A stretch of DNA of 64,000 nt from contig OZ024745.1 of NCBI GenBank assembly GCA_964016885.1, positions 73,718,001 to 73,782,000 on the forward strand, in the 5' to 3' direction. This DNA is from Eledone cirrhosa. Its lineage: Eukaryota. Every line of letters begins with the position of its first letter. Positions within the stretch are counted from its first letter, which is position 1. This document shows, one piece after another, positions 2,519-57,991 of this stretch. Both the position numbers and the translations under genes were made by a program. The notes under the pieces are model-generated. The model made no database searches. It saw only the letters and a list, made by a program, of their open reading frames with translations, and was not told where the DNA came from.

Positions 2519-2519
2519 A

Positions 2520-2592
<73 letters not shown>
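2519..2592. repeat. (ATCT)n microsatellite, left flank of the Tx1 array
   Basis: Perfect tetranucleotide run abutting the 5' end of Tx1 copy A. Confidence 0.95.
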
Positions 2593-2791
2593 GTATAACT
2601 TGCTGAGTAAGTTCTGTTTAAATTTCTATAGAAATTCTTGTCTGATAACTTTAATTTTTGTACCATTTTGTAGATGGACTGCCAGGTCAAACTTTGATCT
2701 GGTCAGTCTCTCAAAATATTCTACGCCTTTAGGCGAAATAGTTAAACAAAAAAAAAAGTGTTTTCTTGTTGAAAAGTCAATATTTTTTTAA

Positions 2792-4583
2792 ATGGCCGAA
2801 GCTTCTTCACCAAAATTCGAGGGAGGAAAGGGGAAGATGAACTTACAGCTTCCCCCTGCCACTGTCACAGTAGCAGAGGTCAAGAAGAAAGGTCAGCCAG
2901 AGGAAGAATTCTCTCCACCTGTTAACCGACAACTTGACGTTGCCATGGCAACAACCCAAAGAACCAGCAGCAACAGCAACAACAACAACAATGCGACGGA
3001 CGAAAACAACACCAATAACAATAACAATAACAACAACAACAAGACCAATAACGGTGACAACAACAACAATGATAACAACAACACCACCAACGACAACAAC
3101 AACACAAACAAACAAAATTTCTCCTTCGCCGAGACGACAAGGAAAACCCTCGACTATCTGCCAGTAGATATAACAAAAGCGAAGGAGCTACTGGCGGATG
3201 CGAAAAAATATATAGTGTACGGAGAAAATGGTTCATTCACAATCCATTCCCCCCGCCGGAACTAAAAAGCCAGAGACTCCTAAACACGGTCATGTTTAGG
3301 ACAATCTCGAACAAAAGTAAAAAACCAGCTCAACCATCACAGAGCGAGATAGAGCTGGTTTTAAAAGACGTCATGAAGGACATCACCTTCATTCAGAAGG
3401 ATAGACTCTACGGGAGTCTATCCATTCTCATGAAGGACAGGGACACAGCAGTGAAACTGTCCATCAAACCAATCACATCCACCGCATACACCTTCTACCC
3501 TACGTACATGGGTAGAAGAACACAAAAAATAAAAATCCACACCATCCTGCCGATTATGGACATATGGTGGGTTTTGACAGGTTTTCTGGACCTGGAGGAT
3601 GACATGCTGGTGTCCATGGGAAAGGCATCGGGTGACGCGTTCAGTGGAACGAGCCTCGAACTTGTAGTTCAAATGAGGCCCGAAAGGATCGCCCAGATCC
3701 CCGAACGCGTCATACTGGATGATCTAACCTTCATCAACATTACCGTTGAGGGTAGACGGCCCTCGTGTTATCTCTGCGGAACCAGAGGTCACCTGAGGGC
3801 TGTCTGTCCCCAACTTAATAAGAAAACCCCAATCCTGCCTACACCATCAACAACTGCACAACCAACACAATCACCACAACTACCACTACAAAAACAACCA
3901 CCACAGCTCAAACCAAAACAAAACAATTTCCAACCCACCCCCTCCACTCAAAAAACAAAAACAATTTCCAAAACACCCGTACCGCAAACACAACCCGAAA
4001 ATATACCCCTCCCCTCCAACGCGGAAGATGACCCTAGTTCGTCGTCAGACGAGGAGGAGCACTTCCACACAATCAAAAGAAAAAAAAGAAAACACACCTC
4101 AGACACACAAATGAAAAAAAACCCTCCCCAAAACATAACACTGACACCAACACAAAAGAGCTCACAACAACAGCAAACAAAAAACACCACACAAAAACAA
4201 AAACATGCCTACACATACATAAATACAAGAAACAAAAAACTGTTAAACATTGTGTACAACAACAATCTAATAAAAACACAAGGGCCTAACTTCACCCAGG
4301 CAGGGGATTTCCCCCACCTCAAAATGATTAAGGCCCCACAGGACACCTATAAAACTTTAAAAAATTTTAAAGAGGACGTGGGTCCCCCCTGCGTCGGGCC
4401 CATTAACCGCGTCCTCCTAAAAAACTATCCCACCCCCTCCCCAAACACCCACACAACTCCAAGCTCCCAAACCACACAACACACTGATGCCCCCACACTT
4501 CCACAAACCACCACCCCACCCAACAACCCATCCCCACCCTAATGGAAATTGTGCAGCCCGATACCCGTGACGCAGAGAGGTAA
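2792..4583 (+). CDS. Tx1 ORF1p (gag-like, zinc knuckle), with two apparent single-base frameshifts
   Basis: ORFs 2792-3265 and 3292-4542 join by adding one C to the C-run near 3250. Knuckle CYLCGTRGHLRAVC. The tail MEIVQPDTRDAER* (4542-4583) matches the in-frame ORF1 end of copy B (MDIVQPGLQVARR*). Confidence 0.8.
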
Positions 4584-4607
4584 GTGCCTTTTCTCTTCAC
4601 CACCAAC

Positions 4608-7600
4608 ATGGCTATGCTAAGAGTAGGCTGTTTAAATGCGCGTGGCCTGGGCTCAACTTGGAAGCAAGCAATGCTTCTAAATGACCTCAGGTCACAACGT
4701 ATAGATGTGATGGTTATTTGCGAGGCCCGGATCAGCAACGTGCGACAGCTGGCCCCCACCTTTGATGACTTTGAGATGCACGCATCTCTCTGTCAGCCCG
4801 GAGGTGGGGGTGGAGTTGTCGTTCTGCTGCAAAAACATCTGGGTCTCGCAACACAGATGGTACATTTGGACCCGGAGGGTCGACTAGTGGTTCTGGACCT
4901 TGGCAGTGGTAAAGGCGGAGCGTTTAGGTTGGTAGCCGCCTACGGCCCTTTCGGGTCAATGCGGCCGGACTTCTTCCATCGTCTGGAGACTTTTCTAGGG
5001 ACGTCCCGCTCCTTGCTATTAGTGGGGGACTGGAATGGTATCCTAGATGCACGCTGGGACTACGTAGGGGCCTGCCCCGATAGAGAGGGGTGTAATAGCC
5101 TCAAAGGGTTAATCGGTCGATTTGACCTGGCCGATAGATATCGACTAGATTTTCTGACTGCGCCAACCTGGACTTGGGCAAATCGTAGCGGATCATCTAG
5201 GTCGTACCTAGATAGGTTCTTAGTTAGAATTAAGGATAAGGACTTTTTAAGTTGTCCAAAAATGCGCATGGTTGGCTATTCAGACCACAAATTAGTGACC
5301 TGCATGGTCAACCTTGACAGAACTCATAGACAGGGCCCCGGTTACTGGAAGCTCAACTTGTCCTTGCCGGCAAGTAGAGCCTACAGGAATCGGATTAGTA
5401 CGTTAGTTAAGGAACGGTTGACTGGAGCGATCGTCAACAGCAGGTGGTGGGTATCTCTAAAGAGAGAGATTGGAGTAGTCTCGATAGAATTTAGTAAGGT
5501 TCTAGCTGCGGATAGGAATAGGAAGGAAAGGGAGCTAATAGATAGAGTAGAAGAGGCAATTAGAAGCGGCGACGTGGCCAGAGTGCTAGCGTCGAGAACG
5601 GCTTTGAGCCAGTTTTTCGACGCGAAGCACGAAGGCTGCGTTGTCCGAAGTAAAATACGTGCTCTAGGGAACGAGGGGACCAAAGCTGTTAGCTGGGCCC
5701 GCATGACAGAGGCCAACAGTGGAACTAAATCCACCATCCGGTCTTTGCGAGACCTGGATGGACGGGCGATTCTTGAGCCTAAGCAGATGTGTGAGGCCTT
5801 TCAAAGGCACTTTGCCCGACTGTTCGGGAGGGGCGGGGAGCCGGTTGGGAACGTGGACTTCGGTCCATACCTCGACGGCCTGCCGCGCCTCTCGGACAGG
5901 GAGGCGAAGTCCTGCGAGGAGCCGATTTCGGCCGCTGAGATAGAGGACGTACTGAGCCAATGCGGCAAACGCAAATCCCCGGGTCTCGATGGTCTTCCTT
6001 ACGAATTATATCTAGCTATGCCGGACTTGTTCCCCGATCTCCTCGAGGCGGTCTACTGCAACTGGCAACAGAACGGGAGAATTCCCTGTACTGTGACCAA
6101 GGGCGTAGTCACGCTAGTGAGGAAGGACGAGAACAAGGGGGACGAAATAAGTAACTTCAGGCCCATAACTCTGCTAAATACAGAGTTACAGATTTTGGCC
6201 AAGGTGCTAGCAAAGAGGTTGGCGCTTGTCGTGGGCAACCTGGTGGGAGATGCGCAGACATGCGCTATCCCGTCCAGGTCCATCCATGACAACCTCCACC
6301 TCATGCGATACATCATAGAGAGGGTTGGGAACGAACCCGGCTTTGGTGGGGCTCTGATCAACTTGGATCAATCTAAGGCGTTCGATAGGGTCGACCATGG
6401 TTACCTGGATGCGGTGCTAGCGACGGCAGGCTTCGGACCCGTTTTCAGGGGCTGGATCACTGCTATGCACAGCAGCCGCATCTGCTCTAGGGCCAAGGTG
6501 AACGGCTACCTCTCGGAGCCGTTCAAAATCGCGCGGTCCATCCGACAAGGGTGCCCTCTCTCCTCCCTTCTGTATGTGTTGACTCTCGAGCCACTACTGC
6601 GGAAGTTGGAGTTGTTGCAGGGCATCCCTTTGGAACCGGGATTGCGGAAAGCGGTGTCGGCCTACGCCGATGACGTGACAGTAATGGTGTCGACGGCCTC
6701 CGAAATCGAGGCGGTCGGCACCTTACTGGAGGAGTACGAAAAGTTCACAGGGGCTAAGCTGAACCGGGACAAGTCGATCGGTCTGCAACTCGGCACGTGG
6801 AGGGGCAGACCGATGCCCTCCGATGGCGTTGTCGGACGCTGGACGGAGGGCCCGGTGAAGTTGCTCGGGGTCTGGTTCGGACCGGACCTCCAGGTGGAGA
6901 AAAACTGGGCGGAGGTTACGAACAGGGTGTTTGCACTGACCCAGAAGTGGGCCAGTTGCAAACTATCCCTGAAAGGTCGGGCGGAGGTGGCGAACACCTA
7001 CATAGCGTCCGTCATCTACTACCGCCTGACCGTAGTGCCCTGCCCAAGGGAAACCCTCACCAAGATGGAGCGCGCGCTCTTCCAATTCCTTTGGAAGAGG
7101 CGGGCTCCTATGGTGAGGAGATCCATCTGCTGTCAACACCCTTCGAAAGGAGGGCTGGGGATGCCGTGGCTAATGATGCGTAAACACGCATTAAGGCTAC
7201 GGCACCTCTACGTATACCTCACCGGACAACCGGTGTGGGCCTCGTTTGTGAGACGAACCTTTCCCAGACTCGTCTCACTCACCGAGCTGCAATCCTGGGT
7301 CAAGCAAAGACCGAGAAAACTGGGCGCCTGGCACACTGAGTGTGCCCAGGCGCTCACCGCCCTCTGGCATGCGGATCCGGTTATCAGTGGAGACTCCACC
7401 GCAACATTCTATAGAGGGCTGGTACGCAGCAGGTGCGACGACGCCCTCGGAGAAGCCCTAGACATGGAGGAGGACGAACTGGCCAGCCTGTTCGGTAGGA
7501 CATTCAGCCCGGGACCTATGGACAACTTCCAGAAGTCCCTGGCCTGGCAGTGCTACCGAGGAGCTTTACCCGTTCGAGAAAGGCTCTACAGACACGGGCG

Positions 7601-8045
7601 CCCGGGTAGGGACCCCGCCAAAAAGATCTGTCCCAGATGCGTGTGCGACGAGGAAACCGTTGCACACGCATTGGTACACTGCTCGGGCGTAGCCGATCTG
7701 TGGGGCTATGTCGAACAACTGCTGTCAAGGGTGGGACCGATCCGGTTGACCACCGAGTCTATTGTAATGATCAAGCCGCCTCCCCCCTTCAAAGATGAAG
7801 CAGAGGCGGTGTTTCTGTGCGTAATAGCCATGGCGAAAGAGGTTGTATGGTGGACGCGTCTGAAAGGACTGAGGTCAGGCACCTTTCTCTCTGGCCAACA
7901 ACTGGTCCGTTTCTTCCGATATCATTTCGGAAGAAGGATCAGGATGGAGAGAGAGGTGCTGCACCCCAGTCGTTTTTATGAAAGGTGGGTGAAAGTGGCG
8001 AGAATGGCCCGTGTGAATGGGCCTTCTCTTTACATGAGCCTGTAG
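4608..8045 (+). CDS. Tx1 ORF2p: APE endonuclease, reverse transcriptase and C-terminal zinc finger
   Basis: EN motifs CLNARG, GDWN, SYLDRF, SDH, GPGYWKLN. RT motifs SPGLDG, NFRPITLLN, DQSKAFDRV, RQGCPLS, YADD. Zinc finger CPRC..EETVAHALVHC. Likely start is CACCAACATGG at 4608. Confidence 0.95.
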   Translation: MAMLRVGCLNARGLGSTWKQAMLLNDLRSQRIDVMVICEARISNVRQLAPTFDDFEMHASLCQPGGGGGVVVLLQKHLGLATQMVHLDPEGRLVVLDLGSGKGGAFRLVAAYGPFGSMRPDFFHRLETFLGTSRSLLLVGDWNGILDARWDYVGACPDREGCNSLKGLIGRFDLADRYRLDFLTAPTWTWANRSGSSRSYLDRFLVRIKDKDFLSCPKMRMVGYSDHKLVTCMVNLDRTHRQGPGYWKLNLSLPASRAYRNRISTLVKERLTGAIVNSRWWVSLKREIGVVSIEFSKVLAADRNRKERELIDRVEEAIRSGDVARVLASRTALSQFFDAKHEGCVVRSKIRALGNEGTKAVSWARMTEANSGTKSTIRSLRDLDGRAILEPKQMCEAFQRHFARLFGRGGEPVGNVDFGPYLDGLPRLSDREAKSCEEPISAAEIEDVLSQCGKRKSPGLDGLPYELYLAMPDLFPDLLEAVYCNWQQNGRIPCTVTKGVVTLVRKDENKGDEISNFRPITLLNTELQILAKVLAKRLALVVGNLVGDAQTCAIPSRSIHDNLHLMRYIIERVGNEPGFGGALINLDQSKAFDRVDHGYLDAVLATAGFGPVFRGWITAMHSSRICSRAKVNGYLSEPFKIARSIRQGCPLSSLLYVLTLEPLLRKLELLQGIPLEPGLRKAVSAYADDVTVMVSTASEIEAVGTLLEEYEKFTGAKLNRDKSIGLQLGTWRGRPMPSDGVVGRWTEGPVKLLGVWFGPDLQVEKNWAEVTNRVFALTQKWASCKLSLKGRAEVANTYIASVIYYRLTVVPCPRETLTKMERALFQFLWKRRAPMVRRSICCQHPSKGGLGMPWLMMRKHALRLRHLYVYLTGQPVWASFVRRTFPRLVSLTELQSWVKQRPRKLGAWHTECAQALTALWHADPVISGDSTATFYRGLVRSRCDDALGEALDMEEDELASLFGRTFSPGPMDNFQKSLAWQCYRGALPVRERLYRHGRPGRDPAKKICPRCVCDEETVAHALVHCSGVADLWGYVEQLLSRVGPIRLTTESIVMIKPPPPFKDEAEAVFLCVIAMAKEVVWWTRLKGLRSGTFLSGQQLVRFFRYHFGRRIRMEREVLHPSRFYERWVKVARMARVNGPSLYMSL

Positions 8046-8368
8046 GTGGAAAAGACGAAGGAACGAGGGAGCACCCCCTCTCTGTGCTCTTGAGGAAAAG
8101 GGTTGCACACTTTTTTCGGGGGGGGGGGGGTGCGACCCCCCAAGGCGCCTCCTCTCTATTGAGGATTTTGTTATAAATTTTATTTTTTGTTATATTTTAT
8201 AACAAAATCCTCTATTGAGGATTTTGTTATAATTCTATTTTTTGTTATATTTTATTTTATTTTTATATATTGTTATTGCCTCCTCCCTATTGAGGACGCC
8301 TTGTTTTGTAAACTCCCCCCATTGTACTTGTCCCACTTTTGATGCCCTTGTGGCAAATAAAAGAAACA

Positions 8369-8436
<68 letters not shown>

Positions 8437-8481
8437 CATCCATCCATCCATCCATCCATCCATTAATCAATCTATCTATCT
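8369..8481. repeat. (TCTA)n/(TCCA)n spacer between Tx1 copies A and B
   Basis: Direct reading of the sequence. Confidence 0.95.
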
Positions 8482-11400
8482 GTGTCGCCAATTGTGTTCT
8501 CCCTCTACACCTTTTCCCCCACATATATGGGAAAAAGGACCCCAAAAATAAGAGTAACAAATATCACCCCAAATGTAAACATCTGGTGGATATTAGCTGG
8601 TTTCATCAATTTTGATGAAGATACAGTAATTACAGAAAGTCCTCCAGGGGCATATTCAACGGTACAAGCTTAGAAGTTCTGGCCCAAATGAGACCAGAAC
8701 GGATAGCTAGAATACCACGACGTGTGCCTCTGGATGGAAATTCATACATGAACATTTCTGTTGAGGGTAGGCGGCCTTCATGTTACCAGTGTTTAAGCAG
8801 TGGTCACCTGAGGGCTTCCTGTCCTCAATTAACTGCATTAAAAAAGGCACTACTGCCGACACCCAACACAACAACACAACCACCACCACCACAACAGCAA
8901 CACACAAAAATAACAAAAACAAACCAAACTGCAAACACAGTCCCATCCAACCCCTCCCCACCTAAAACAACACACCCACAAGCACAACAGCTCCCCAAAA
9001 CGTACCCCTCCCCAATCAAACAGACACCACAACGGGCGAAGCCCCCTCGTCATCACTCAGTGATGATGAGGGAGAACACCTCCGCTCAAAAAAAAAAAAG
9101 AAAAAAGACATAACACTAACAAAAAGGCAACAAACACACAACTACCAACACAAACAAAACAAACACTACAAACAAAAATCCCCCCTCCCGAAAACAAAAC
9201 ACTGACAACACTCCAAACACAAATACCCACAACAAAACGAAAACACACACAAGAACAACAGACAAAAACTAACACAACACAACAAAAATATTATACATAC
9301 ATAAACACTGACAATAAAACCTTGATGGAGGTCATCTCCAAAAACCCTTGCGTGGAAACCGAAGGAAAATATTTTACCAAATGTAAAGACAAACCTAATT
9401 TAAGGATGATTAGGGTCCCTACGGACACATATAAGTCCTTAAAGAAACCTTTGCTGCGGACGTGGGGAATATGTGTGTTAAACCAACGAACCGCGTCCTC
9501 TTGAAACGTTTCCTCACCCCCACCCCAGACACCCCCACCCTACCACCTACCAAACACCCCCTCCCCACCAAACAACTCCGTCCCTACCACGCCAGGAACC
9601 ACCACCCTACCGAATAACCCCTCCAACACCCCCATGGACATTGTGCAGCCTGGTCTCCAGGTAGCGAGGAGGTAAGTGAATTCTTTCCTCTTCTTTTTTA
9701 AATATTCCTCACCAACATGGCCGATGTAAAAGTCGGATGTGTGAATGTGCGCGGCCTGGGGATGCTCTGGAAACAGGGCAAACTCTTAAACGACCTCAGG
9801 TCGCACAGTATGGATGTAGTAGCCATTTGCGAGTCCAGGATCCACAGCGAGCGACAGCTGGCCCCCATCTTCGATGACTTTGAGATCTACGCATCTCTCT
9901 GTCAGCCGGGAGGTGGGGGCGTGGTTGCCGTTTTGCTGAGGAAACACCTGGGCCTCGTAGCACAGACGGTACATCTGGACCCGGAGGGTAGACTGGTGGT
10001 CCTAGACGTTGACGGTAGTGAAGGTGGAGCCTTCAGGCTGGTGGCCGCATATGCCCCATCCGGGACTCCGCGGCCAGACTTCTTCAAACGTCAAGAGACT
10101 TTTCTGGGGACGTACCGCTCCTTGCTTTTATTGGGGGACTGGAATGGAATCCTAGATGCACGTTGGGAATATGTGGGAGCATGTCTCGATAAAAAAGGGG
10201 GGGTGTAACAGTCTCAAACAGTTAATCGGCCGATTTGACCTGGCCGATAGATATCGACTAGATTTTCCAACAGTGCCACTGTGGACGTGGACTAATCGTA
10301 GCGGAACATCTAGATTGTACCTAGATAGGGTTCTAGTTAGAAATAAGGATAGGGACATGTTAAGCTGTCCACAAATGTTCATGGTTGCCTATTTAGATCA
10401 CAAACTAGTGAACTGCATGGTCAACCTTGATAGAACCCATAGACAAGGACCCGGCTACCGTTTTAGTAAAGAATTAGCGTTAGATAGAAATAGGACCGAG
10501 AAGGAACTGGTAGATAAAGTAGAAGAGGCAATTAGAAGAGGCAAAGTAGCCAGCGTGCTAGCAACGAGAACGGCCTTAGACCAGTTCTTCGACGCAAAGC
10601 ACGATGTTGCGTTGTCAGAAGCAAAATAACTGCTCTGGGTAACGAGGGAGCCAAAGCTGTTAGCTGGGCCCGGGTGCCGGATGCGAAAAGTGGCAACAAG
10701 TCCACGATTCGGCCTTTGAAGGACCAAGACGGACGCGTGATACGTGAGCCGAAGCAGAAGTGCGCGGCCTTTCAGCGGCACTTTGCTCAGCTGTTCGGGT
10801 AGGGCGACGCGCCGGGAGGGACTATGGATTTCGGTCCATACCTCGACGGCCTGTCGCGATTCTCAGACAACGAAGCGAAGTTCTGCGAAAGGCCGATTTC
10901 AGCCGCTGATATAGGGAACGCGCTGAGCCAATGCGGCAAACGCAAATCTCCAGGTCTCGACGGTCTACCCTACGAATTTTACGTAGCAATGCCGGACTTG
11001 TTCTCTGTTCTCCTGGAAGCGGTCTACTGTAACTGGCAGCAGAACGGGAGAATTCCCAGTTCTGTGACCAGGAGCGTAGCAATGCTAGTCAGGAAGGACG
11101 AAAATAAGGAAGATGACATAGGCAACTTCCGGCCCATAACTCTGCTAAACATAGAGTTACAGATCGTGGCCAAGGTGTTGGCAAAGAGGCTGGCGCTTGT
11201 CGTCGAAAACCTGGTGGGAGAAGCGCAGACATGCGCAATCCCGACCAGGTCCATACACGACAACCTCCACCTCATGCGATACATCGTAGAGAGGGTTGGG
11301 TGTAAACCCGGCTTCGGTGGGGCCCTGATCAACTTGGATCAGTCTAAGGCTTTCGATAGGGTTGACTATCGTTACCTGGATGCGGTGCTCGAGGCGGCAG

Positions 11401-13255
11401 GCTTCGGACCCGTGTTCAGGGGCTGGATTGCTGCAATGCACAGCAGCAACATCTGCTCAGGGGTCAAGGTGAACGGCTACCTCTCGGAGCCGTTCTATAT
11501 CACGCGATCCATCCGACAGGGATGCCCTCTCTCCTCCCTTCTGTAGTACTGACTCTTGAGCCACTAGCGCGGAAGTTGGAGCTATTGCAGGGCATCCCTC
11601 TGGAATCGGGACTGCGGAAAGCGGCGTCGGCCTACGCCGACGACGTTACAGTAATGGTGTCGAGCACATCACAAATCGAGGAAGTCGGCACCTTACTGAA
11701 GGAATACAAAATGTTCACAGGAGCGAAGCTGAACCGAGACAAGTCCATCGGTTTGCAACTCGGATCGTGGAGAGGAAAACCGATGCCTTCCGATGGTGTC
11801 GTCGGACGCTGGACGGAAGGACCGGTGAAGCTGCTCGGGGTCTGGTTTGGTCCGGACCTCCAGGTGGAGAAGAACTGGAAAGAGGTGACGGCCAAGGTGT
11901 TTGCACTCACCCAGAAGTGGGCCGAGTGCAAACTATCCTTGAAGGGTCGAGCGGAGGTGGCGAACACTTTTATAGCGTCCGTCATCTACTACCGCTTGAC
12001 CGTCGTGCCTTGTCCAGCCAAAACGCTCACCAAAATGGAGCGCGCGCTCTTCCAATTCCTTTGGAAGAAGCGGGCTCCTTTGGTGAGCACATCCATCTGC
12101 TGCCAACACCCTTCCAACGGAGGGCTGGGGATGCCGTGGCTGACGATGCGCAAACACACGCTCAGGCTGCGGCATCTCTACGTATTCCTCACCGGACAAC
12201 CAGTGTGGGCCCCGTTCGTGAGGCGAGCCTTCCCACGACTCGTCTCGCTGACCGAGTTGCAGTCCTGGGTCAAGCAAAGACCGAGGAAAATGGGTGACTG
12301 GCACGTCGAATGTGCTCAGGCGCTGACAGCTCTCTGGCAGGTAGACCCGGCGATCAGTGGAGACTCCACTTTGTCATTCTATAGAGGTTTGATCCGCAGC
12401 AAGTGCGATGACGCGCTCGGAGAAACTCTAGGCGTAGAGGAAAACGAACTGGCCAGTCTGTTCGGTAGGACCTTCCGCCCGGGACCGATGGACAACTTCC
12501 AAAAGTCCCTGGCCTGGCAGTGCTACCGAGGAGCTCTACCAGTTCGAGACAAGCTCTACAGACATGGGCGCCCGGGCAGGGACCCTTCGAAAAAGATCTG
12601 TCCGAGATGCGTGCGAGACGAAGAAACCGTCGCGCACGCATTCATACACTGTCCGAGCGTTACCGACCTGTGGGGCTATGTAGAACGACTACTGTCGCGA
12701 GTGGGACCGATTCGGTTGACCACCGAGTCCATTGTCATGATCAAACCGCGACTCTCCTTCAAAAACGAAGGAGAGGCGGTTTTCCTTTGTTTGATAGCTA
12801 TGGTGAAAGAGGTTGTATGGTGGACGAGGTTAAAAGGGCTGAGGTTAGACACCTTTCTCTCCGGTCAACAACTGATTCTTTTTTTCAAATACCTCTTTGG
12901 AAGAAGAATCAGAATGGAGTCAGAGGTGCTGTACCCCAGCAAGTTTTATGAAAGGTGGGTGAAAGTGGCGAGAATGGCCCGAGTGAATGGGCCTTTTCTC
13001 TATATCAGCCTGTAGGTTGAGGAAAAAGAGGAAGAGAGGAAAGAGGTACAAACTCTTCGTACTCCTGGAGATGAGGGTTGCACATTTTTTTCGGGGGTAT
13101 GTGTTACCCATATGAAATGTCTCCCACTATTGGGGAAAATCAATTAATTTTTAAATTGCATTTGTGATAGTATTTTACACGTTTATATTGTATGTAAACT
13201 TCCCCTTTGTATTTGTCCCCTTCTTTTGTGTCCCTGTGGCTAATAAAGAAACATA
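8482..13255 (+). mobile_element. Tx1-clade LINE copy B, 5'-truncated within ORF1, decayed
   Basis: Starts mid-ORF1 (YTFSPTYMGKRT). Knuckle CYQCLSSGHLRASC. ORF2 9717-13015 is broken by frameshifts and a deletion near 10458. Ends TAATAAAGAAACATA then (TCTA)n. Confidence 0.92.
9717..13015 (+). pseudogene. Tx1 ORF2 pseudogene (copy B)
   Basis: ORF pieces 9717-10208, 10156-10629, 10824-11546 and 11522-13015 are colinear with copy A ORF2. Confidence 0.92.
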
Positions 13256-13272
13256 TCTATCTATCTATCTAT

Positions 13273-16200
13273 TCTCTGGGATGGACACCTGTGTTAATCT
13301 TGCTCGGTAAGTTTTGTTTAAATTTCTTTATCAATTCGTCATTGTGAACTTTTATTTTTATAACAATTTGTAGAGGGACTGACAGGTCAAATTTTGATCT
13401 GGTCAGTCTCCCAAAATATTGTGCCCCTCAGGGCAAAAAGATCCAACATATTTTCAAAAATATTTTTGCAAAACACTTCAATTTTTAAAAAATGGTCGGA
13501 GCAAAGGCACCTACTTCTTTGTCAATACAAGAAGATGGGAAGGGAAAGCCATGCCTACTTGATCAGCAGATAGTAGCAGACATGGACAAAGGAATGCCAA
13601 CATTATCGCCTCAACATTTAGAAGATGAACAAGCTTCAGTTGCTTGTAAGCAACTGAACACGCCTGACGTCACAAACGTCACATGTATCCACACACAGAT
13701 GGAAATATATGTAGCAAATAGTAACACCACCACAAGCAACAACAACAACAACGCAACAAAAGGAATCAGTGGGAATACAACGAATGAGACCATCATTACC
13801 ACCAACATCAATAACAAAATTTCATTTGCAACAACCGTTGCTAAGCAACAGGATTTTAAATATTACTCCATGGACATTTCCCAAAAGTCCCAATATTTGG
13901 AAGAAGCTTCCAACTATGTGACGTTTGAGGCAGACACCCCACACATACACATACCCCCACAAATAAGAGAAAGAGAATAAGAGAAAGAGAAACACAGAAA
14001 AAGAAACTGATCTACAGAAGATTTGACATTACCAACAAACCCATAACGCTCCCAACAAGCACTATCGGAGCTGCACTAAAAGATATCAAGCCAGACGTGG
14101 CATAACTCCAAAGAGCTAAACAGTATGGAAGTGTGTTCAGTGCTCTTTAAGAACGAAACTCTGGCACAAAAACACTCGGTTCACCCAATAAAAACGGATC
14201 AACACATCTTCTTCCCCACATACACGAGAAGAAGATCCTACAAAATAAAAATAACCAGAATCCCAGCAGAGGTCAACATATGGTGGATCCTACGCTGCAT
14301 CCCGAAGAAGGATGAGGACACCCTCCTATCTGTAGACAGGACAGACCGGAATAACTGGTTTGGAACCTGCATCGAGGTTCTGGTACAAATGAGGCCAGAG
14401 AGAGTTGAGAAAATACCGGACAGGATCGTCCTTGAGGATGATGTCATCTCCATTTTAGTGGAGGGGAAAAGACCTCAGTGCCATAAGTGTGGGAAAACCA
14501 CACACTTAAAGGATTTTGCCCTCTCTTAAACAAACCGAGGACAAACAAGGTGTTATTACCAACACCAAAACCCCCAACATAAACCCCCCAAACCAAAAAC
14601 AACACAAAAACCTGCAACATCCACTCCCACATCACCACAGACCAGAGACAACCACACACACAAAATCCCACTGAAATACCCTCCATTGCCTCCTCCCTCC
14701 CTGTCAAATACTTCCACAAACACCTGCACAAACACTCCACCACACAACATACCCCTTCCATCTACCCCTGATTCAGAAGTCTCAGACACGGGAAACTCTA
14801 CATCTCCAAGTGAGAATGAAGAGGAACCGCTAAAAACCAAAAACAAAAAAAAGAGACAAAAAAGACACAAAAACATCTACAGAAAACACACACACACACA
14901 ACCACACCATAAACACACCGCCACAAACGACAAACACACCAACAACACAATCACCACCAACACAACCAAACACTTCACCAACAAAACAAACACCCACACC
15001 ACCACAATCACAAACCCCAACCACAAAAATAAAACTACAAATAGAAACAGTATACATAAAAAACAAAACACATTACACATACATAAAAACAAGAAACAAA
15101 GAACTGGTGGAAGCTGTCTGAAAGGACCCCACAATACAAACGGAAGGGAAAACCTTCCCCACCAACGACCCACCTCCAAACTTCAAAATTATTAGGGTAA
15201 CAACCCTACAGTATAAAACTTTAAAAGAGAACTTCCCACATATACGGCCACCAGTCTGAAAGCTCCACCTTCACTACCATTCACGTCCAGGACCACCAGG
15301 CTGCCCTCCAGGTCCAAGTGAATCGTCTGTATTTTGAGATCCAAGTTTTTTCGAAACAGAGCAGCAACTCCCCCTCCACCTCCTGGCTGACAGAGAGATG
15401 CGTAGATCTTAAAATCATCGAACATGGGGTTTAGCTGCTGCTTGTCGTGAATCCTGGACTCGGTGATGACCTGAGATCATTTAAAAGCTGGCCCTGGGAC
15501 ATCGCGACCAGAGTTCTTCAAGCGTCTGGAGCCATTCCTGGGAACGTCTCGCTCCTTAGTGTTAGCGGGGGACTGGAATAGCATCTTAGACGCACGTTGG
15601 GATTATGTAGGAGCTTATGATAATAGAGGATGGTGTAATAACCTCAAAAATCTCATCAGCCAATTCCAACTGGCTGATAGATCTCGACTAGACTTCCCAA
15701 GTGCACCACTGTGGACGTGGAGCAACCGCACTAGGTCTTCTAGATCGTATTTAGATAGATATTTACTTAGACAGAATGATAAGGAAACATTAAGCTGTCC
15801 ACAAATGCACATGGTTGCCTATTCAGACCACAAATTAGTCACCTGCGTAGTCAACCTTGATATTGATAGAACACATAGACAGGGACCCGGATACTGGAAG
15901 CTAAACATGTCGCTCCCGGCGCGTAAGGCCTACAGTAAACGGATTAGCACCTTAGTTAAGTGCCAGTTGACGGGGGAGATCGTCAACAACAGGTGGTGGA
16001 GCTCTCTCAAGAGAGCAATTAGAATAGAATCGATAGCATTTAGCAAAGAAGTAGCTTTAGAAAAAAACAAAACTGAAAAGGAACTGGTAGCTAAAATAGA
16101 AGAGGCAGTTAGGAATGGCAGTACAGCTGACGTGCTAGCGGTGAGAACGGCACTAGACCAGTTCTTCAACGTGAACACGAAGGTTGTATTGTCAGAAGTA

Positions 16201-18782
16201 GAACACGTGCTCTAAGAAACGAGGGAGCCAAAGCTGTTAGTTGGGCCCGAGTGGCAGACTCGAAAAGTGGCAACAAATCCACAATTCGGTCTTTGCAAGA
16301 CAAAGATGGACGCATTATACTTGAATCCAAGCAGATGTGCACGGCCTTCCAGCAGCATTTTGCACAACTGTTCGGGAAAAGCGGTACAACGAGCTAGGTG
16401 ATCGACTTCAGCTCCTACCTCGACGGTGTACCGCGACTCTCGAGCACGGATGCAGAGAGCTGCTAAAGGCCGATCACAGCGGGCGAAATGGAAGATGCAC
16501 TAGGTCGCTGCGGGAAACGCAACTCACCCGGTTTAGATGGTCTACCCTATGAGTTTTACATAGGCATACCAGACTTGTTCTCTGGCGTCCTCAAAGCGGT
16601 CTACGGCAACTGGCAGCAGATCGGGAAGATTCCCAGTACCGTAGGCAGAGGCGTAGTAACGCTGATCAGGAAAGATGAGAACAAGGGGGATGAGATAAGC
16701 AATTTCAGGCCCATAACTGCTCAATACAGAGTTAAAGATTTTGGCCAAGGTGTTAGCAGCAAGGCTGGCGTTTGTCGTTGGGAACCTGGTAGGGGAAGCC
16801 CAAACGTGTGCTATCCCGACCAAGTCCATACACATGGGTAGGGTGTAAACCTGGCTTCGGTGGGGCTCTGATCAATTTAGATCAGTCTAAAGCATTTGAT
16901 AGGGTCGACCATCAATACTTGGAAGCAGTTCTCAAAGCGGCCGGCTTCTGTCTCGTCTTCAGAGGCTGGATCGCTGCCATGTACACCAGCATCTGCTCGG
17001 CAATCAAGGTGAATGGCTACCTATCAGAGCCATTCCAAATCATGCGTTCCATCCGTCAGGGACGCCCTATCTCCTCCATTCTGTATGTACTGACTCACGA
17101 GACGTTACTGCGGAAGTTGGAGCTGTTACAGGGCATCCCGATCGAACCAGGACTGTGGAAAGCAGCGTACGACATAAACGTAATGGTGTCGAAAACCTCG
17201 GAAATCGGGGAAATCGGCAACCTATTACAGGAATACGAAAAGTTGACAGGAGCAAGACTAAACCCAAACAAATCTCTCGGTTTGCAACTCGGCACATGGA
17301 GAGGCAAACCCATGCCTTCCGACAGTGTTGTTGGACGCTGGACGGAAGGACCGGTGAAATTGCTCGGGGTCTGGTTTGGTCCAGACCTCCAGGTGGACAA
17401 GAACTGGAACGAGGTCACGGCGAAGGTGTTTGCACTCACCCAGAAGTGGGCTGAGTGCAAACTCTCCTTGAAAGGTCGAGCGGAGCTGGCGAACAATTAC
17501 ATAGCGTCCGTCATCTACTATCGCTTGACAGTCGTGCCTTGCCCCCGCGAATACCTTGCCAAAATGGAACACCTACTCTTCAAGTTCCTCTGAAAGAAAC
17601 AGGCTCCATTGTTGAGGAGATCCATCTGCTGTCAACACCCTTCTAACAGAGGGCTGGGCATACCGTGGCTAATGATGCACAAACACGCGCTGAGGCTACG
17701 CCATCTCCAGGTATTCCTGACCGGTGAACCGGTGTGGCTGTCGTTTGTGAGACAAGCTCTTCCACAACTCGTCTCACTAACAGAGATGCAGTCCTGGGTC
17801 AAGCGAAGACCGAAAATGGGTGCCTGGCACATCGAGTGCCTACAGGCGCTCACAGCCCTCTACCAAGTGGAAACGGCAACCAGCGGAGACTCCACTTCGA
17901 CATTCTATAGAGGATAAGTGCGACGACGTTCTCGGGGAAACTCTAGGCATCGAGGAGGACGAACTGACCAGTCTGTTCGGGAGGACTTTCCGTCCAGGGC
18001 CTATGGATAACTTCCAGAGGTCTCTGGCCTGGCAGTGCTACCGAGGAGCTCTACCAGTTCGAGATAAAATCTACAGGCACGGACGCCCTGGCAGAAATCC
18101 TGCCAAAAGGACCTGTCCAAGATGCGAGCAGGACATCGAAACCGTTCTTCACGCAACTGTTCAGTGCCCAGGGGTGACCGACCTGTGGAATTATGTCGAA
18201 CAGCTGCTGTCACGTGTGGGACGCATCCAGTTGTCAGCCGAGTCCATCGTGAGGGTAACCCCGCCGCCTTCATTTAAGAACGAAGGAGAGGCGGTTTTCC
18301 TCTGTCTGGTGGCTATGGCGAAAGAGGTAATATGGTGGACGAGGTTAAAAGGACTGAGGGCAAACACCTTTCTCTCCGGACAAGAACTTATCCCCTTCTT
18401 TAAGTATCACTTCAGAGGGAAGGTGAGAGTGGAGAGAGAGGTGCTACACCCCAGTAAATTCACTGAAAGGTGGGTGAATGTGGCGAAAATGGCCCGAGTG
18501 AATGGGCCTTCTCTGTATATAAACCTGTAGGTTGAGGAAGATAAACAGAGGGAAGACAGGAACACCTACAAAACGTGTTCCTGGTGTTGAGGGTTGTTCT
18601 ATCTACGGGGTGTAAAACAACCCTGCAGTAACGTTCCCCCTATTGGGGATTTCAATTGTTATTTTCCTATATATATAGTTTATTGTTATTTATTAATGTT
18701 AAAGTTATTTTATGTAAAATCCCCGCCGTCACGTCTTGTAATGTCCCAGTTTTGTACGCCCCTGTGGCAAATAAAGAAAGAT
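13273..18782 (+). mobile_element. Tx1-clade LINE copy C, with 5'UTR, decayed, internal inversion
   Basis: 5'UTR homologous to copy A. ORF1 pieces 13492-15240 (CHKCGKTTHLKD). ORF2 pieces run to 18530. Ends GGCAAATAAAGAAAGATA then (TCTA)n. Confidence 0.9.
15238..18530 (+). pseudogene. Tx1 ORF2 pseudogene (copy C); 15238-15496 is inverted
   Basis: The EN N-terminal piece (FDDFKIYASLCQPGGGGG...GGAFRLVAVY) lies on the minus strand. The rest is on the plus strand with many frameshifts. Confidence 0.88.
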
Positions 18783-18798
18783 ATCTATCTATCTATCA

Positions 18799-18900
18799 AT
18801 TGCATTTGTGATAGTATTTTACACGTTTTTATTGTATGTAAACTTCCCCCTTTGTATTTGTCCCCTTCTTTTGTGCCCCTGTGGCAAATAAAGGAACATA
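18799..18900 (+). mobile_element. Tx1 copy D: ~100 bp 3'-terminal insertion of the copy-B family
   Basis: Nearly identical to 13156-13255 and flanked by (TCTA)n on both sides. Confidence 0.9.
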
Positions 18901-20368
18901 TCTATCTATCTATCTATCGATAGATCGATTTGTTTTGCATATATATAATATATACAAATGTGTTTACATGTACACATTCCGACACGTGAACATACATATA
19001 CAGTACGAATGATGTTCTCAAAGATATAAAGAGACGCTTGCGCACACACTCGTACACACACAAACAGATACACACGCACAGTAAGATAGATAAAATATAC
19101 GTACACATATTCGTAGTAGCTAGTCGGAAAATTCATTTCTGGTAAATCTTGCTATATTTCGTTTCTAATCATGGTAGGGGAGGGGGTGTTATATCTGGAA
19201 TTGAAATTAAGAAATGGATATAAAGGTAAATATATGTTTTAAATATTTATACAGCAACGGAGAATACGAGAACATCCACTGGGACTTAGGTGCGATACAA
19301 TCAACTAATTTAACATTATTAACAAGAATGGTATTGACTTCAATTATTCCATAAAAAAAAGGAAATCATTTCAGATTTATACTATTTTACAAAGAGAAAT
19401 TCACCAGCAATGCATATCTTACTGAGATTACATTAATGTAAATAGACCACTGGAATGGAATATCAAACCCATTAAACATTGACCCGTTGAGCTGAGTAGA
19501 AATCTTACACTATTGGTGTTCTAAAGTCATCTCACAAATGCATGCATAAAATAGGTTTAGAATGTTTCGTCATAGAAGTTCCCACAAATTTATTTAAGGC
19601 TGGTATTATTTTATAACCTTTCCAATTGCATGTAGCATTACTTTCCCTGGTATACTACATGATAAGAGGCCTTCATTTTCTCTTAAATATGAAATGGTGA
19701 CTTAAGAAAGACATTTAAGTTTGGATATTTTCCCAACCTTTTATTCAGTGTCTAAAAATCTGAAAATATTTGTTTGGTTTATTTGAATGTAGGCTTCATG
19801 TCATTCAACATAACGAATACGTAAGTATTGCCTCATTAATAATCAAAGGAATATTGCCAAATTTTAAATATTTCCGTGAATATTGCCAACATTTTTCCAA
19901 GTACAAATATTCTGTGATATTTGTTGCAGCATCCTGAGCTCTTCGTTCAAATCCTCCCGAGAACAATTTTTCTTTCCGCCTTTTCGAGGTTGATAAAACC
20001 AAAATATCAATCTAGAGCGGTTGATTGGAATGTCGGAGGAAATGCCTGGCAGTATTTAGATTTGAATAGCATAAACTTAATAAATCTAAATTTAATTCCA
20101 AAGAGAAGAAAGCGGAACATTTTTTATGAGAGTTCCTTATACTCTGAAGAAGGGAATTTTAAGTCTCAAAATATTAGAAAGAAAGAAACAACATCAACTA
20201 AAAAACAAAACAAAGCAAAACAAAACAAAGATTACCAGGTAACTAAATGTTTCGTTATCTTTATCTTATCGCCCATTTTGCATTGTTTAGCCTTTTATCA
20301 CTTTCCACATTATATATTATATACAATACTTCAAGAAAACTACATTTTATTACACACACACACACACG

Positions 20369-25964: not shown

Positions 25965-26060
25965 GAAGTAATTCCGTCGGAAAAGTCCAGGAAAAAAGAG
26001 TGCTCTATGTAGGTAACAGAACTTAATAGTTATGTAATAAACAACATAAGGCAATTATTC

Positions 26061-26114
26061 CATTTACCAGTGGTTTCTTAAAAGCAAAAAATTTTGCTTT
26101 CAATCATCAGAATG
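26061..26114 (-). ncRNA. Type I hammerhead ribozyme (left arm of palindrome)
   Basis: catt-CTGATGA-ttgaaagcaaaattttttgcttttaa-GAAA-ccactgg-TA-aatg. Confidence 0.8.
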
Positions 26115-26229
26115 AAAATATCCTGGTGTATTTATTGATATTGGATTCTAAAATCAAAAATGCAATCTATCTGATAGATTGCATTTTTGTTTTTAGAATC
26201 CAATATCAATAAATACACCAGGATTTTTT

Positions 26230-26283
26230 CATTCTGATGATTGAAAGCAACATTTTTTGCTTTTAAGAAACCACTGGTAAATG
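26230..26283 (+). ncRNA. Type I hammerhead ribozyme (right arm of palindrome)
   Basis: catt-CTGATGA-ttgaaagcaa/ttgcttttaa-GAAA-cca c tgg-TA-aatg, with a GUA cleavage triplet. Confidence 0.82.
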
Positions 26284-26789
26284 GAATAATTGCCTTATGT
26301 TGTTTATTACATAACTATATATATATATATAAACAATTATATATTCGTGTATAGATATTTTTGCATACACATATAAACAAAAGTAATTATTTCGCGATAA
26401 AGTATTGATTTTCTTCGAACGGAAAAAAACCCTGGTAATGTACGACGAATTTTTTTTATAAGCACAAATGTAGACACCCAGCCGAGGCCGAGGTATTCCG
26501 TACTTCTCTGTACTGTTATATATATATATATAAATATATATAAAATTTAGTACAGCATTAACGAAGTCATGGTTGCAGCCAAGCTAACGAATGCAGTTTC
26601 GGTGTGCAGCTAAGCACTCGATAGGGTATATAACCCTAGAGTTATAACATTACGTTTAGACAGCTTTGCAAAATGAATACAGCGACCGATAGAAGGGCCG
26701 CAGTGACCATAGCCACGAAAACGACTGAACTCAGGAAAAATTTGACTAACTTGGACCACACGTCGACATCATACATAACATATAATACA

Positions 26790-27599: not shown

Positions 27600-28700
27600 G
27601 GGTTGATAGATGATCTGAAGTCTGATTTCAGGTTAATCCGAAAGTCTACGTATGTCCTTATTTTGGACGGGTTTACTGTGTCTGTTGCGATTTTCATGCC
27701 TGCTTGTACCGCAAGTGTAAGAATGAAAACTTATTTCCAAGATTTTTAAGCCTCATTCTTTGTTAGAATGGCCTCTTTGACCTCTTGATTGAACCAATGG
27801 GTCCTCCTGCCACTTGGCACCACACAAAGCCTCTGTCGCTCGCAGCATTTTATAGAAACAAAAAAATCTGAGCTGAACATTCCCCACTCTATCTCAACGT
27901 CCTCAGTTTGCCCAGGGAGTTTTCTGAATTTGGATGCAATAGTATCTGCATACATAGTCCTAACTTCCTTATCCACCAATGCTTCCCACTTTATCCTGTA
28001 GGTCACCCTGGATCTGCCAGTTTTATTGGCTTCTTTGGCTTTAAATAGTCCAAAGCTGCAGATAACTAGATGGTGATCAGTTGACAGCTCAGCCATTCTC
28101 TTAATACAAACATCCAGCACAGAATCAAAGAGATCAGAGACAATAACAAAATCAACTATTAATCTCTGTCCCTGATACCCCTTATACCATGCATGTTTAT
28201 TCAACTATTAATCTCTATCCCTGATACCCCTTATACCATGCATGTTTATTCAAATATTAATCTCTGTCCCTGATACCCCTTATACCATGCATGTTTATTC
28301 AACTATTAATCTCTGTCCCTGATACCCCTTATACCATGCATGTTTATTCAACTATTAATCTCTGTCCCTGATACCCCTTATACCATGCATGTTTATTCAA
28401 CTATTAATCTCTGTCCCTGATACCCCTTATACCATGCATGTTTATGGCTGTCTCTGTGCTGGAAGAAGGTTTTCGTAATAGAGAGTCCATTTGCAGAACA
28501 AAAGTATAGTAAGGCCTCTCCGTTCGTGCTTAGATCTGGGTCGCCATTCCTTCCAATCACTTCTTTCCATGTCAGGTGGGAATTTCTATCATATGCACTG
28601 AAGTCTCTCATCAGGATATATGACTCAGTCTTAACTACATCTACCGCTGCAGTGACTTCAACAAGTAAGGACCTATATTGGATTCATTGCTTGGCGCATT
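27600..28700 (-). mobile_element. RTE-clade (Rex3/Expander-like) LINE endonuclease fragment
   Basis: IGRNGDPDLSTNGEALLYFCSANGLSITKTFFQH...VDFVIVS...AELSTDHHLV are RTE APE-domain motifs. Confidence 0.8.
28152..28445. repeat. 49-bp minisatellite, 6 copies, inside the RTE fragment
   Basis: Unit tcaactattaatctctgtccctgataccccttataccatgcatgtttat starts at 28152, 28201, 28250, 28299, 28348 and 28397. Confidence 0.95.
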
Positions 28701-38726: not shown

Positions 38727-38985
38727 TAACATCCCGCACACGGTGCCAAGCCTTTACGAGTGTATATTAATATTTCGAGGGTGTGAGAAAAATAGATCAC
38801 TGGTCCTGATAGTGGTTTGGTTGAGTTTATCATAATAGTAAACTGGTCTGATGGAGAAACTGGGTGGGTAGGTTGTTGGGGGGGGGGGGGGGGGGGCTTG
38901 ACTATGGTAAGTGTATCTGGTCAGGCAATAGGTCAGGTGAGAGCGAGAGAGCGAGAGAGAGAGTGAGAGAGAGAGAGAAAGATAT

Positions 38986-41900
38986 ATAAATTAACTAATA
39001 CCTTAACACTTCACACAAAGTAAAATATTTTGTTTTAAACATTTTCTAAGCCAGAAAAAAGAGAAAAAAAAAAAGAAAAAAAAAAATGTTCTTCCTAATA
39101 ATCGTTTTTTCTCCCTATTTACATATATATATATTCCAACTCGTGTGCCCCTTCTCCACATTTTATAATTATTATTTACTCCGACACGAGATACAGAAAA
39201 TGCCACCTAAAACAAAAACAGACTCCACTCTCATTAGCATCAATCAAGAGATACTCCAAGAACTACAAAAAATAAACTCTAATTTGTCAATACTCGCCGA
39301 CAAACCTAATTCTACAAGTGAAGAAACAATCCCCAAATACACATCCTATGAAATCAACGACAATATCAACAACTTATGTGAAACAATAAAAACACACCTG
39401 AAAAACAACACAAATCCTATTCAAGCAAACGAGAAAACACATGACACTAATACACTTACAACTTACCAAATAAAAAACAAATTAATACCACAATGGTACA
39501 CATCTCTTAAAAACAGGAAATTCTCCTTTTGGAAGATGATACAAAATAATAACAAAGCAGAGATCTATGAAAAATGGATTAACTCATCCCCCATTAATCC
39601 TTCCCCGCAAACTACAAATTAAATCTATCCCAAATGAACCCGAGACACAAAGACGCCCCAGGGAAAGAATGGCACTTCATAACATGAAAACCGAAATTGA
39701 ACTCCTTAAATTGAGAGCCCAAACAAATCAATCGACGATGAGATTAATCAAGCAATTATCAATAAAACCAAAGACACCACCCTAGAAAATATTTCAAAAC
39801 TATGGTTGGAGGACTGTAATAAGGAAGAATTAAAATCCCTTCAACGTTGGGAAATAAACGTAACCTGGTTCTCTAACTATGAAACACTTTTCCAAAAAGA
39901 ACACACATCCAAGAACCCCCCCATTAAAACCAAAATAACAAGAAAACACTACAACTTCTCTCCCACCAGGAGAAGCCATAGAAACCCTTACAACACCCCT
40001 AACATCCCCACACAACAAACCCACAACTATCATTACTTTCAACATAGAACCCAAAATACACAACTACCACACATGCCACATAGGGCCTCACAACCACACA
40101 CCAACTATAAGGAAACCTCTATCTACCATCCTCCACTAACCACATCCTACAACAACACCAGCAGGGGACAATACAACCACACGAGACTCCCTAACCACTA
40201 CAACCACCATAACTACACACCATACAACAACAACAACAACAGCAGGACTCAATATAATCACACAAGACAACCCTACTACAACTACCACCAAGTCTACACA
40301 CCTTACAACAACAGCAGGGCTCAATACAACCATACAATACAACCTAACTTCAACAACCACCACAACTACACACCCTATAACAACGTCCATCAAATCTACA
40401 CACCCTACAACAACAGCAGGGCTCAATACAACCACACGATACAACCTAACTTCAACAACCACCACAGCTACATACAATCTAACAACAACAGCAGGGGCCA
40501 ATACAACCATAAGAGACATCCAAACTTCAACAACCACCACAATTTCCGTAGTCATTTTTTAGAAACAGCACACAGACACAGGGTAACAGGATAACACAAA
40601 ACACACAAGAGACACAAAATGTAATAAAAAGAATTAACAACAGACCAAATCAACATACTCTCCAAAGGTCTGAAATTTACACCAACTACCCCGAAAGGAA
40701 GGAAGACATTGCAGAATTCTGTAGAAAACCTTACTAGTAACCTTTGATGTAATCAATCTATATTCCAATATCCCACACAACCTAGGTATAGAGGCAATAC
40801 AATTCTGGCTTGAAAATTTCCCTAATGAACTTCCACAGCGCATCCCTAAAGGATTTGTGATGGAGAGCCTCAAATTCATCTTGGAAAATAACTTCTTCGA
40901 ATTCGATGCCAAATACTACAGACAGAAATCTGGGACTGCCATGGGCACGAAAGTAGCCCCCTCATACGCCAACCTTGTCATGGGATATTTGGAAACTACT
41001 CTCTACCGTAAAGATTCTAGACAAATACGGAAACCACTTCTACCTACACATAGAGAAAAACTGGAAGAGATATCTGGACGACTGCTTCATCCTCTAGCAT
41101 GAAAGTATAGAAAGACTGATGGAGTTTAAAACACTTCTAAATGGACTCAACACAAACATACAATTTACAATGGAATACAGCCATGAAGAACTCCCTTTCC
41201 TTGACATCCTCATCAAGAAAACAAACAACAAAATAGAAACAGACATATACTACAAACCCACAGACTCCAAACAATATCTTCCATTTAACTTGTGCCACCC
41301 TCGCCATACCAAAATGGCAATTCCTTATAACCTAGCCAGAAGGATCTGCACAATAGTTTCAAATAAATACACATGCTACATACGACTAGAAGAATTAAAG
41401 AACACACTTATCAGCAGAAACTACCTACCATCCCTAATCAACAATGGATTCCAACGTGCCCTAAAACTCAACATCCAGCAACTCAGACACCTCAAACCCA
41501 GGAATGAACCGAAACACAAAACTCTACCACACATCACACACAACCCCCTCAACAATGAGGTGTTCGACACCATCCTCCAGAACATTCCTTTACTTAAAAG
41601 AGATCCAAGAATGAACAAAATCCTCCAAACACACAACATCATAAAGAGCAAAAGACAACCTAAATCCATAAAAAAAACATCCTCACACAAGCCAAAATCC
41701 AACCAACCGTCACAATGAACCTTACAGTCAAAAAATCCGAAAGGCCCAACTGTGGTATATGCATAAATCTAATAGAAGGTTCAACATTTCATTTTAAACA
41801 AGGACAACATTTCACAGTTAAATACAACTTTACATATGCATCTGAAAACCTAATCTATGTTTTGACCTGCTCAGGTTGTCGAGAGCACTACATAGGACAG

Positions 41901-42579
41901 ACAAAAAACAGCCTCCGACAACGTATGACCGTCCATAGATCACAAATCAAAATACAAGAATACAGAAAGATTGCTTTTAGTGAACATATCGCCAATTGTG
42001 CACCCAACCAACAACCAAACTTTAAGATTTTCCCCATTTACAAATTCATAGACAACGCTTCTTTCATCCATCGTACCAATAAGGAAACGTACTTCATTAA
42101 CAAATTCCAGCCACTACTTAATGGACTAAACTTCGGACTAAACTAAAACTGGAACGAACAATGAACCATAGCACAAAATTCCTACGTTCTCTAAAGAATT
42201 ACCTCCCTCACACCCTACCTAATCCCTTTTCTTATACCCCCTCTCCTCTCTTTCTCCTACCCAACCACCCTGAATTACCTGCCCTTGCATATTAACTCTC
42301 TAAAAAGGGAAAACATATCCAACCCCAGACTACCATTTGACTCCATCATGGATCAACTTCTCTAAGCGCGCCTGCAATAATAACACTTTTTGAACTGCTT
42401 ATCCTCAAGAACTATGCCTGTAAATAATATTATTCTTTCTTTCCCATTTCAATAACATGTTCAACATCACCTTATCTTCTCTCCTACATTTTATACCATT
42501 ATAAATTCCCCCTTTTTTTGCTCTCCCACTCACATAATTTGATAATGCATAAAATGCTGAAACCGGCAATTGACAATTA

Positions 42580-42615
<36 letters not shown>

Positions 42616-43563: not shown

Positions 43564-43720
43564 ATATATATATATATACATATATGCAGTGGTTATATTT
43601 AATTTGTTGGGATTCAACATGCTTAACATTTTTATAACTGATATAAAGCACTCAACAATTTAGTGGAGTAAATACACAATATATTAATAAATGGAAACTA
43701 TATTTATAAAACCATATTTA

Positions 43721-57717: not shown

Positions 57718-57991
<274 letters not shown>

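Follow-up and report, generated by a model that had tools for sequence, protein, structure and literature searches.

A probable TATC-targeting LINE family of the L1/Tx1 group, stacked four times in the genome of Eledone cirrhosa

The window analysed here, a 64,000-nt stretch of the Eledone cirrhosa genome (assembly GCA_964016885.1, contig OZ024745.1, positions 73,718,001 to 73,782,000), contains a head-to-tail array of four copies (A to D) of one long interspersed nuclear element (LINE) family. We consider it likely that this stack arose by four separate insertions, made by a young LINE of the L1/Tx1 group that targets TATC in one orientation, its endonuclease (EN) nicking the GATA strand. An earlier note on this DNA had proposed four same-strand insertions made by repeated retrotransposition and not by segmental duplication, and both claims are borne out: all four copies lie on the plus strand with TATC between them (Table 1), and their mutual identities, their dispersed relatives and their differing 5' ends speak for independent events.

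Same-strand TATC is found at all five array junctions, against a TATC-register 8-mer in 12 of 1181 intervals of 40 nt in the rest of the window, which is far beyond chance. Three of the five tracts (between B and C, between C and D, and downstream of D) measure 16-20 nt, about one target duplication, as would follow from renewal of the site at every insertion. All four copies end in GTGGC(A/T)AATAAA..AA(C/G)A followed by TATCTATC, and the absence of poly(A) noted earlier for the array extends to every copy sampled elsewhere in the genome (see below).

A, B and C belong to three subfamilies, whereas D is a B-type 3' end. Identity in the region of open reading frame 2 (ORF2) amounts to 84% between A and B, 75% between A and C and 77% between B and C; D matches the terminal 101 bp of B at 95%. 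For every copy the nearest dispersed locus compared is more similar (99% for A, 94% for B, 95% for C and 98% for D) than the neighbours in the array, so the stack consists of separate insertions. On sequence grounds, copy A is the youngest of the four.

TATC sites across the genome

Candidate copies were collected with the last 101 bp of A (474 candidates, of which the best 40, all 100% identical to the query, were scored) and with the ends of B (1351) and C (1648). Once two self matches had been dropped, along with the duplicates L001 and L024 and with 11 short loci superseded by longer ones, 95 distinct copies remained. Their 3' flanks read TATCTATC in 65 cases, TATCTA in 14, TATC in 6, TAT in 8 and another sequence in 2; poly(A) follows none of them. 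At the 5' side a TATC-register 8-mer lies within 40 nt of 63 of the 84 junctions and on the opposite strand at only one. Besides the low background in the window, the 8-mer was met in 3 of 1280 cases downstream of ATT-type copies, which are described below. Full-length A-type 5' ends abut TATC in 28 of 29 copies, though a few pairs look segmentally duplicated. Most of the sampled copies are thus flanked by TATC in the same orientation, and random flanks or poly(A) are not the rule among them.

The recognised site is apparently shorter than a microsatellite. Perfect 3' units have a median of 2 per copy, and no more than one is present in 30 of the 95 copies, which points to a short TATCTA/TATATA motif, abundantly available in microsatellites; some insertion sites are (TA)n or non-repeat DNA. 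The earlier idea of a (TCTA)n-specific element therefore stands for the single orientation and the presence of the target at both ends (79/95 and 63/84), but the real target is the short motif.

Stacking at a renewed target was also anticipated, and indeed another family copy directly adjoins 36 of the 95 sampled copies. At L001/L002 (G000:C2:372389224-372399448) several A-type copies share a 5' truncation point, so some stacks grew by tandem duplication and not by new insertion. The shared end motif occurs 20,127 times in the genome (control: 0), a count that pools lineages with different targets.

Several observations weigh against TATC as the general target. No TATC 8-mer is found at 21 of the 84 5' junctions, about six of which are internal rearrangements, and L009, L025, L026, L072 and L077 appear to lie off target. 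All 95 copies were sampled as best matches and not at random, and the A query carried two repeat bases, the B and C queries none. Finally, 30 end motifs taken in order of position comprise 14 with TATC, 2 with TATA, 3 with ATT and 11 others, nine of the latter from one satellite-associated lineage (lineage I, see below). Nonetheless, the flanks taken together indicate that copies very probably target TATC sites in one orientation.

Target-site duplications (TSDs), together with the lack of added units at short targets, identify the repeat as the target and not as a tail. TSDs containing non-repeat letters measure 36 bp in L059, 28 in L030, about 26 in L023, 17 in L093, 16 in L285 and 15 in L047; further ones measure 15 bp in L056, 14 in L088, 11 in L075 and 7 in L305, giving an overall range of 7-36 bp. 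The 3' flanks reproduce every letter of the target, as with the TATATAT of L030, and no 3' units have been gained by the five copies whose short targets are informative (L059, L088, L030, L093, L057). The suggestion that 3' read-through spreads the microsatellite consequently finds no support in these five copies.

At the 5' side the picture is different for three full-length copies, which carry extra TATC-like DNA between the TSD and the element start (21 nt in L285, 12 in L222 and 6 in L233), beyond what the local target could supply. The simplest reading would be that transcripts start inside the upstream tract; template jumping is an alternative. The dinucleotide after AAAGAAA follows the subfamily: it is GA in 35/35 C copies, partly since the C query ended in GA, and TA prevails among those A2 copies that were retrieved through the 5' end. 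In L222 the T following this dinucleotide mismatches the target. Both observations suggest that the RNA probably includes a few bases of the repeat.

Sister lineages and the cause of the preference

Target-primed reverse transcription is established for the L1 group. In the mechanism we propose, the APE (apurinic/apyrimidinic) endonuclease would nick the GATA strand just before TATCTA, and reverse transcription would be primed there. The RNA would continue beyond AAAGAAA for a few bases of the repeat, with which the nicked GATA end would pair, so that no poly(A) is copied. A top-strand cut 7-36 nt downstream would leave TATC on both sides and renew the target, where later copies could pile up. 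Full-length RNAs would start inside the upstream repeat and may carry 1-5 TATC units to the new site. The TATC preference would have a single origin, probably in ATT-targeting ancestors, accompanied by changes to surface loops of EN. Both the ends of the RNA and the direction in which the target switched are steps that we infer.

A genome search with two related proteins yielded lineages E and F (L141-L220, L303), which are young and intact, share the 3' architecture and have an ORF2 protein about 68% identical to that of A. They reside in (ATT)n: at least two units follow 54 of 60 3' ends, TATC follows none, and the full-length 5' ends examined likewise lie in (ATT)n. E and F are often stacked together, adjoining a common short repeat whose end is likewise ATT. 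Two other lineages are associated with satellites. Lineage I (L340-L343, G000:C1:4222001-4262000; L344-L346), 84% identical to A in ORF2 protein, always occupies the same position within a ~72-bp satellite; the four loci concerned include six near-full-length units in tandem. Lineage G (L297-L302), 85% identical to A, has TATATATC after its 3' end and lies in a CTCTCTATATC-rich, TATA-containing satellite-like repeat at 6/6 loci. For G and I the association may reflect either targeting or co-amplification with the satellite.

Maximum likelihood trees place A, B, C, G, H and I in one clade (97/100), with E, F and one relative outside. The tree order suggests that ATT targeting is older than TATC targeting, the root of the group being weak. 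The TATC-specific lineage proposed earlier thus holds as a clade, but it is only one branch of a wider radiation with sisters at (ATT)n or satellite sites.

Fifteen EN positions, among them loop 61-66, are fixed in the TATC lineages and different in E and F; in the former the loop reads LCQPGG and the EN hairpin NR(S/T)G, versus VSRPGM or PSRPGS and NR(I/M)G in the latter. This hairpin shapes target specificity in L1 (PMC1950540). From comparison of the sequences, the 15 diagnostic residues are candidates for specificity only. Two points count against tying the preference to them: the tree holds a single ATT/TATC switch, so that no diagnostic residue can be linked to specificity, and the satellite-associated lineages G and I retain most TATC-type residues. 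On balance we infer, with fair confidence, that the endonuclease is the main cause of the TATC preference.

The main rival is that nicking is loose and AT-directed, and that TATC is chosen after nicking through pairing with read-through UAUC, the target being inherited from the site of the master copy. The subfamily-inherited dinucleotide and the mismatched T in L222 fit an RNA that extends into the repeat, (TA)n and off-target sites exist, lineages G and I switched flanks with few EN changes, and post-nicking selection has been discussed for L1 (PMC1950540). However, the five short-target insertions without extra units limit the amount of repeat carried by the RNA, the 15 EN positions do distinguish TATC from ATT lineages, and Tx1L-EN nicks hardly anything but its own target (PMC1950540). 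We regard loose nicking combined with RNA-DNA pairing as possible but unlikely.

Far less probable is a (TATC)n made by the element as its 3' tail, with the 5' repeats being tails of older neighbours. Another family 3' end does lie just upstream of 18 of the 84 copies, and the I element and UnaL2 are known to carry tails of repeats (PMC3747384). Yet many truncated copies, such as L031-L036, L042 and L043, have TATC upstream and unique DNA next to it, 3' flanks such as that of L030 copy the target exactly, and short targets show no added units; the TSD cases largely refute a tail. Tandem or segmental duplication of a single insertion does occur elsewhere (the common truncation point of L001/L002, the duplicates L023/L024 and the six-unit array of lineage I with the same junction), but for the array in this window it is hardly credible and is refuted by the copy identities given above.

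Coding capacity, splice-like signals and other elements

Copy A retains an intact ORF2 next to a frameshifted ORF1, and B is broken in both 5' extent and reading frame (Table 1). In copy C an internal inversion (15240-15470) places ORF2 amino acids 36-112 on the minus strand, the ORF1/ORF2 junction is missing and the ORFs are broken. In a genomic sample both ORFs are open in 9 of 23 full-length copies, and many genomic copies are evidently young and intact.

ORF1 of intact relatives has 595 amino acids and one CCHC knuckle. Pfam zf-CCHC was matched at E 0.039 (below the curated cut-off); an intact ORF1 gave no Pfam match at 0.05. In ORF2 the Pfam domains Exo_endo_phos, RVT_1 and zf-RVT were identified, the last with E 4e-5 and below the curated cut-off. 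Across 31 sequences the endonuclease residues N10, E39, Y112, D141, N143, D202, D226 and H227 vary little or not at all. A structure model of the endonuclease (predicted local distance difference test, pLDDT, 93) has L1-EN as its best fold match with a TM score of 0.79-0.81; phmmer with the endonuclease alone returned 0 PDB matches at 1e-3, whereas the fold search did recover L1-EN.

The short hairpin at the 3' end shows compensatory pairs in E, F and A, whereas B and C have lost the outer pair. Its conservation may be taken as a hint only, as the search pattern pre-fixed part of the 3' arm. A predicted RNA duplex between ORF2 start and ORF2 end ranked best of about 76 control windows in four of seven lineages and near the top in the other three, a weak signal given the small margins and approximate windows.

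A donor-like GGT(A/G)AGT lies 20-45 nt upstream of the ORF2 ATG in 11/11 copies from nine sublineages. In copy A this GGTAAGT (4579-4585) contains the ORF1 stop codon, and the motif overlaps the ORF1 stop in all three ORF1s translated in full. An acceptor-like AG is present at or just past the ORF2 stop (8040-8047 in A). Copy B has such donor- and acceptor-like sites at 9671 and 13010-13017, and they also occur at L201, L214, L227, L296 and L297. The pair could yield an ORF1-only RNA. The GT..AG stretch in the 5' untranslated region (5'UTR) is kept across diverged subfamilies and is unspliced in the genomic copies examined. Genome searches with A-type junction patterns gave 0 exact matches for retrocopies lacking ORF2 and 0 for retrocopies lacking the 5'UTR stretch. 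Among the joints listed for contigs from four sequencing runs of unrecorded kind (15 of 150), and the 2 joints for one of these runs taken singly, none coincides with either intron-like interval, a result that does not bear on splicing.

Table 1. Features of the four-copy array, in window coordinates
Feature	Position	Strand	Remarks
(TATC)18 target tract	2520-2592	+	5' flank of copy A
Copy A	2593-8368	+	lacks ~18 nt of the full 5' end
67-nt intron-like GTAAGT...TTGTAG in 5'UTR of A	2607-2673	+	
ORF1 of A	2792-4583	+	frameshifts near 3255 and 4536
ORF2 of A	4608-8045	+	intact, 1145 amino acids: APE endonuclease, reverse transcriptase, C-terminal zinc finger
APE endonuclease part of A ORF2	4608-5345	+	
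Conserved 3' end of A	8350-8368	+	3-4 bp hairpin, AATAAA, AGAAA, subfamily dinucleotide, no poly(A)
Compound spacer (TATC)17 + (CCAT)n + TATC	8369-8481	+	between A and B
Copy B	8482-13253	+	5'-truncated inside ORF1
ORF2 of B	9717-13015	+	broken: frameshifts, ~145-bp deletion, one stop
(TATC)4.75 spacer	13254-13272	+	between B and C; about one target duplication long
Copy C	13273-18781	+	full 5' end, GGATGGACAC at 13279
67-nt intron-like GTAAGT...TTGTAG in 5'UTR of C	13307-13373	+	
(TATC)4 spacer	18782-18797	+	between C and D
Copy D	18798-18898	+	101-bp 3' end, B type
(TATC)5	18899-18918	+	3' flank of D

Other repeats are present in the remainder of the window. A broken element with reverse transcriptase (RT; Pfam RVT_1) and a C-terminal CCHC-like motif at 49597-53645, which we take to be Dong/R4-like, begins directly behind (ACAT)15, with its other end apparently at ACATACAT; judging by these flanks, it is possibly a member of an (ACAT)n-associated family. 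Two Penelope-like elements are found, one with GIY-YIG and a ~140-bp direct terminal repeat (38985-42780) and one with a weak GIY-YIG match between 352-bp inverted arms that are 99% complementary (43681-47264). Near-perfect palindromes at 26026-26318 (146-bp arms) and 57989-58402 (181-bp arms) resemble miniature inverted-repeat transposable elements or fold-back elements, and a 49-bp minisatellite at 28152-28445 has six copies with 98% matches.

Relation to known elements and implications

The best solved-structure relative of ORF2 is human L1 ORF2p (E 9e-46, against 4e-19 for R2), so the RT is closer to L1 than to the R2 type. In view of the N-terminal APE domain with its catalytic residues, the separate CCHC-bearing ORF1, the zinc finger, the 5' truncations and the TSDs, we classify the element as an APE-type non-LTR (long terminal repeat) retrotransposon of the L1/Tx1 group. 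Close matches among named proteins come from Argonauta hians (61% identity) and from Acanthosepion, a cuttlefish (36-51%). An RT tree built from 36 rows groups the family with its relatives of 38-45% identity in a clade of their own (100/99). Fish proteins named TX1 or pol-like connect to this clade at 85/96 in an open fork, and it is not nested among them; no type sequence was recognised among these fish proteins. The target preference exceeds the 20%-of-flanks criterion of PMC4494074 at both 3' flanks (79/95) and 5' flanks (63/84). Overall, the element works like a Tx1 element, and formal membership of the Tx1 clade appears likely. An ESM Atlas search returned generic RT clusters only, and a JGI metagenome scan for element flanks in other species gave 329 pattern matches, none of which was confirmed.

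Kibi and Koshi are Tx1-clade LINEs of teleosts that insert in (TC)n and (TTC)n, respectively (Kojima and Fujiwara 2004, cited in PMC4494074 and PMC3812793). They resemble the present family as APE-type Tx1-like LINEs in a microsatellite and differ in target and host, which here are TATCTA/(TATC)n and a cephalopod. The fish Tx1-like proteins compared are about 28% identical and form a separate branch. Crocodilian Tx1 families in (TTCC)n/(TTTC)n share the tetranucleotide preference and the Tx1 lineage, but their targets are pyrimidine-rich and they are placed beside Kibi and Koshi (PMC4494074), whereas the target here is AT-rich and relatives are associated with ATT or satellites. Human LINE-1 (PDB 1vyb, 8sxt) has the same order of endonuclease, RT and zinc finger, the same EN fold and catalytic set, and likewise shows 5' truncation and TSDs. 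It differs in its poly(A) end and in cutting at poly(T)-A junctions; the present copies carry a conserved 3' motif instead.

Among elements of other lineages, Waldo and Mino belong to R1 and Dong to R4. Together with Togen, which is NeSL-related (PMC4640811), they are alike in using simple repeats as safe multicopy landing sites (PMC3812793, PMC4640811), although their targets differ from TATC (ACAY for Waldo, AC for Mino, TAA for Dong and TG for Togen). Tandem insertion at a renewed target is known for SINEU-3 (PMC4494074). In Octopus vulgaris 80 L1-Tx1 families have been described, of which 13 were recently active, and the parts of the text and supplement examined mention no target preference for them (PMC13282606). 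This library probably contains homologues of the present family. A GATA/TATC-targeting LINE was not found in the literature portions covered, Repbase, Dfam and Fig. 3 of PMC4494074 lying outside the search and possibly listing one. Microsatellite-targeting Tx1 elements are thus already known, while the TATC target and this lineage were not found in print in that search.

The choice of microsatellite targets by APE endonucleases has been described as not well understood (PMC3812793). Here, intact and recently active families that are ~16-33% apart in ORF2 protein reside in different repeats and come with a short list of candidate residues, which makes specificity directly testable. Each TATC-type insertion duplicates 7-36 bp of target, and the family therefore likely contributes to the turnover of GATA/TATC microsatellites and to nested stacks. 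A more speculative and rather doubtful extension is that active sister families were retargeted from ATT to TATC and on to the ~72-bp satellite site by a few EN loop changes, that full-length copies seed fresh TATC tracts from their 5' ends and that all of ORF2 could be spliced out to leave an ORF1-only message. If true, the group would offer a natural, swappable code for APE target choice, as well as a source of host GATA microsatellites.

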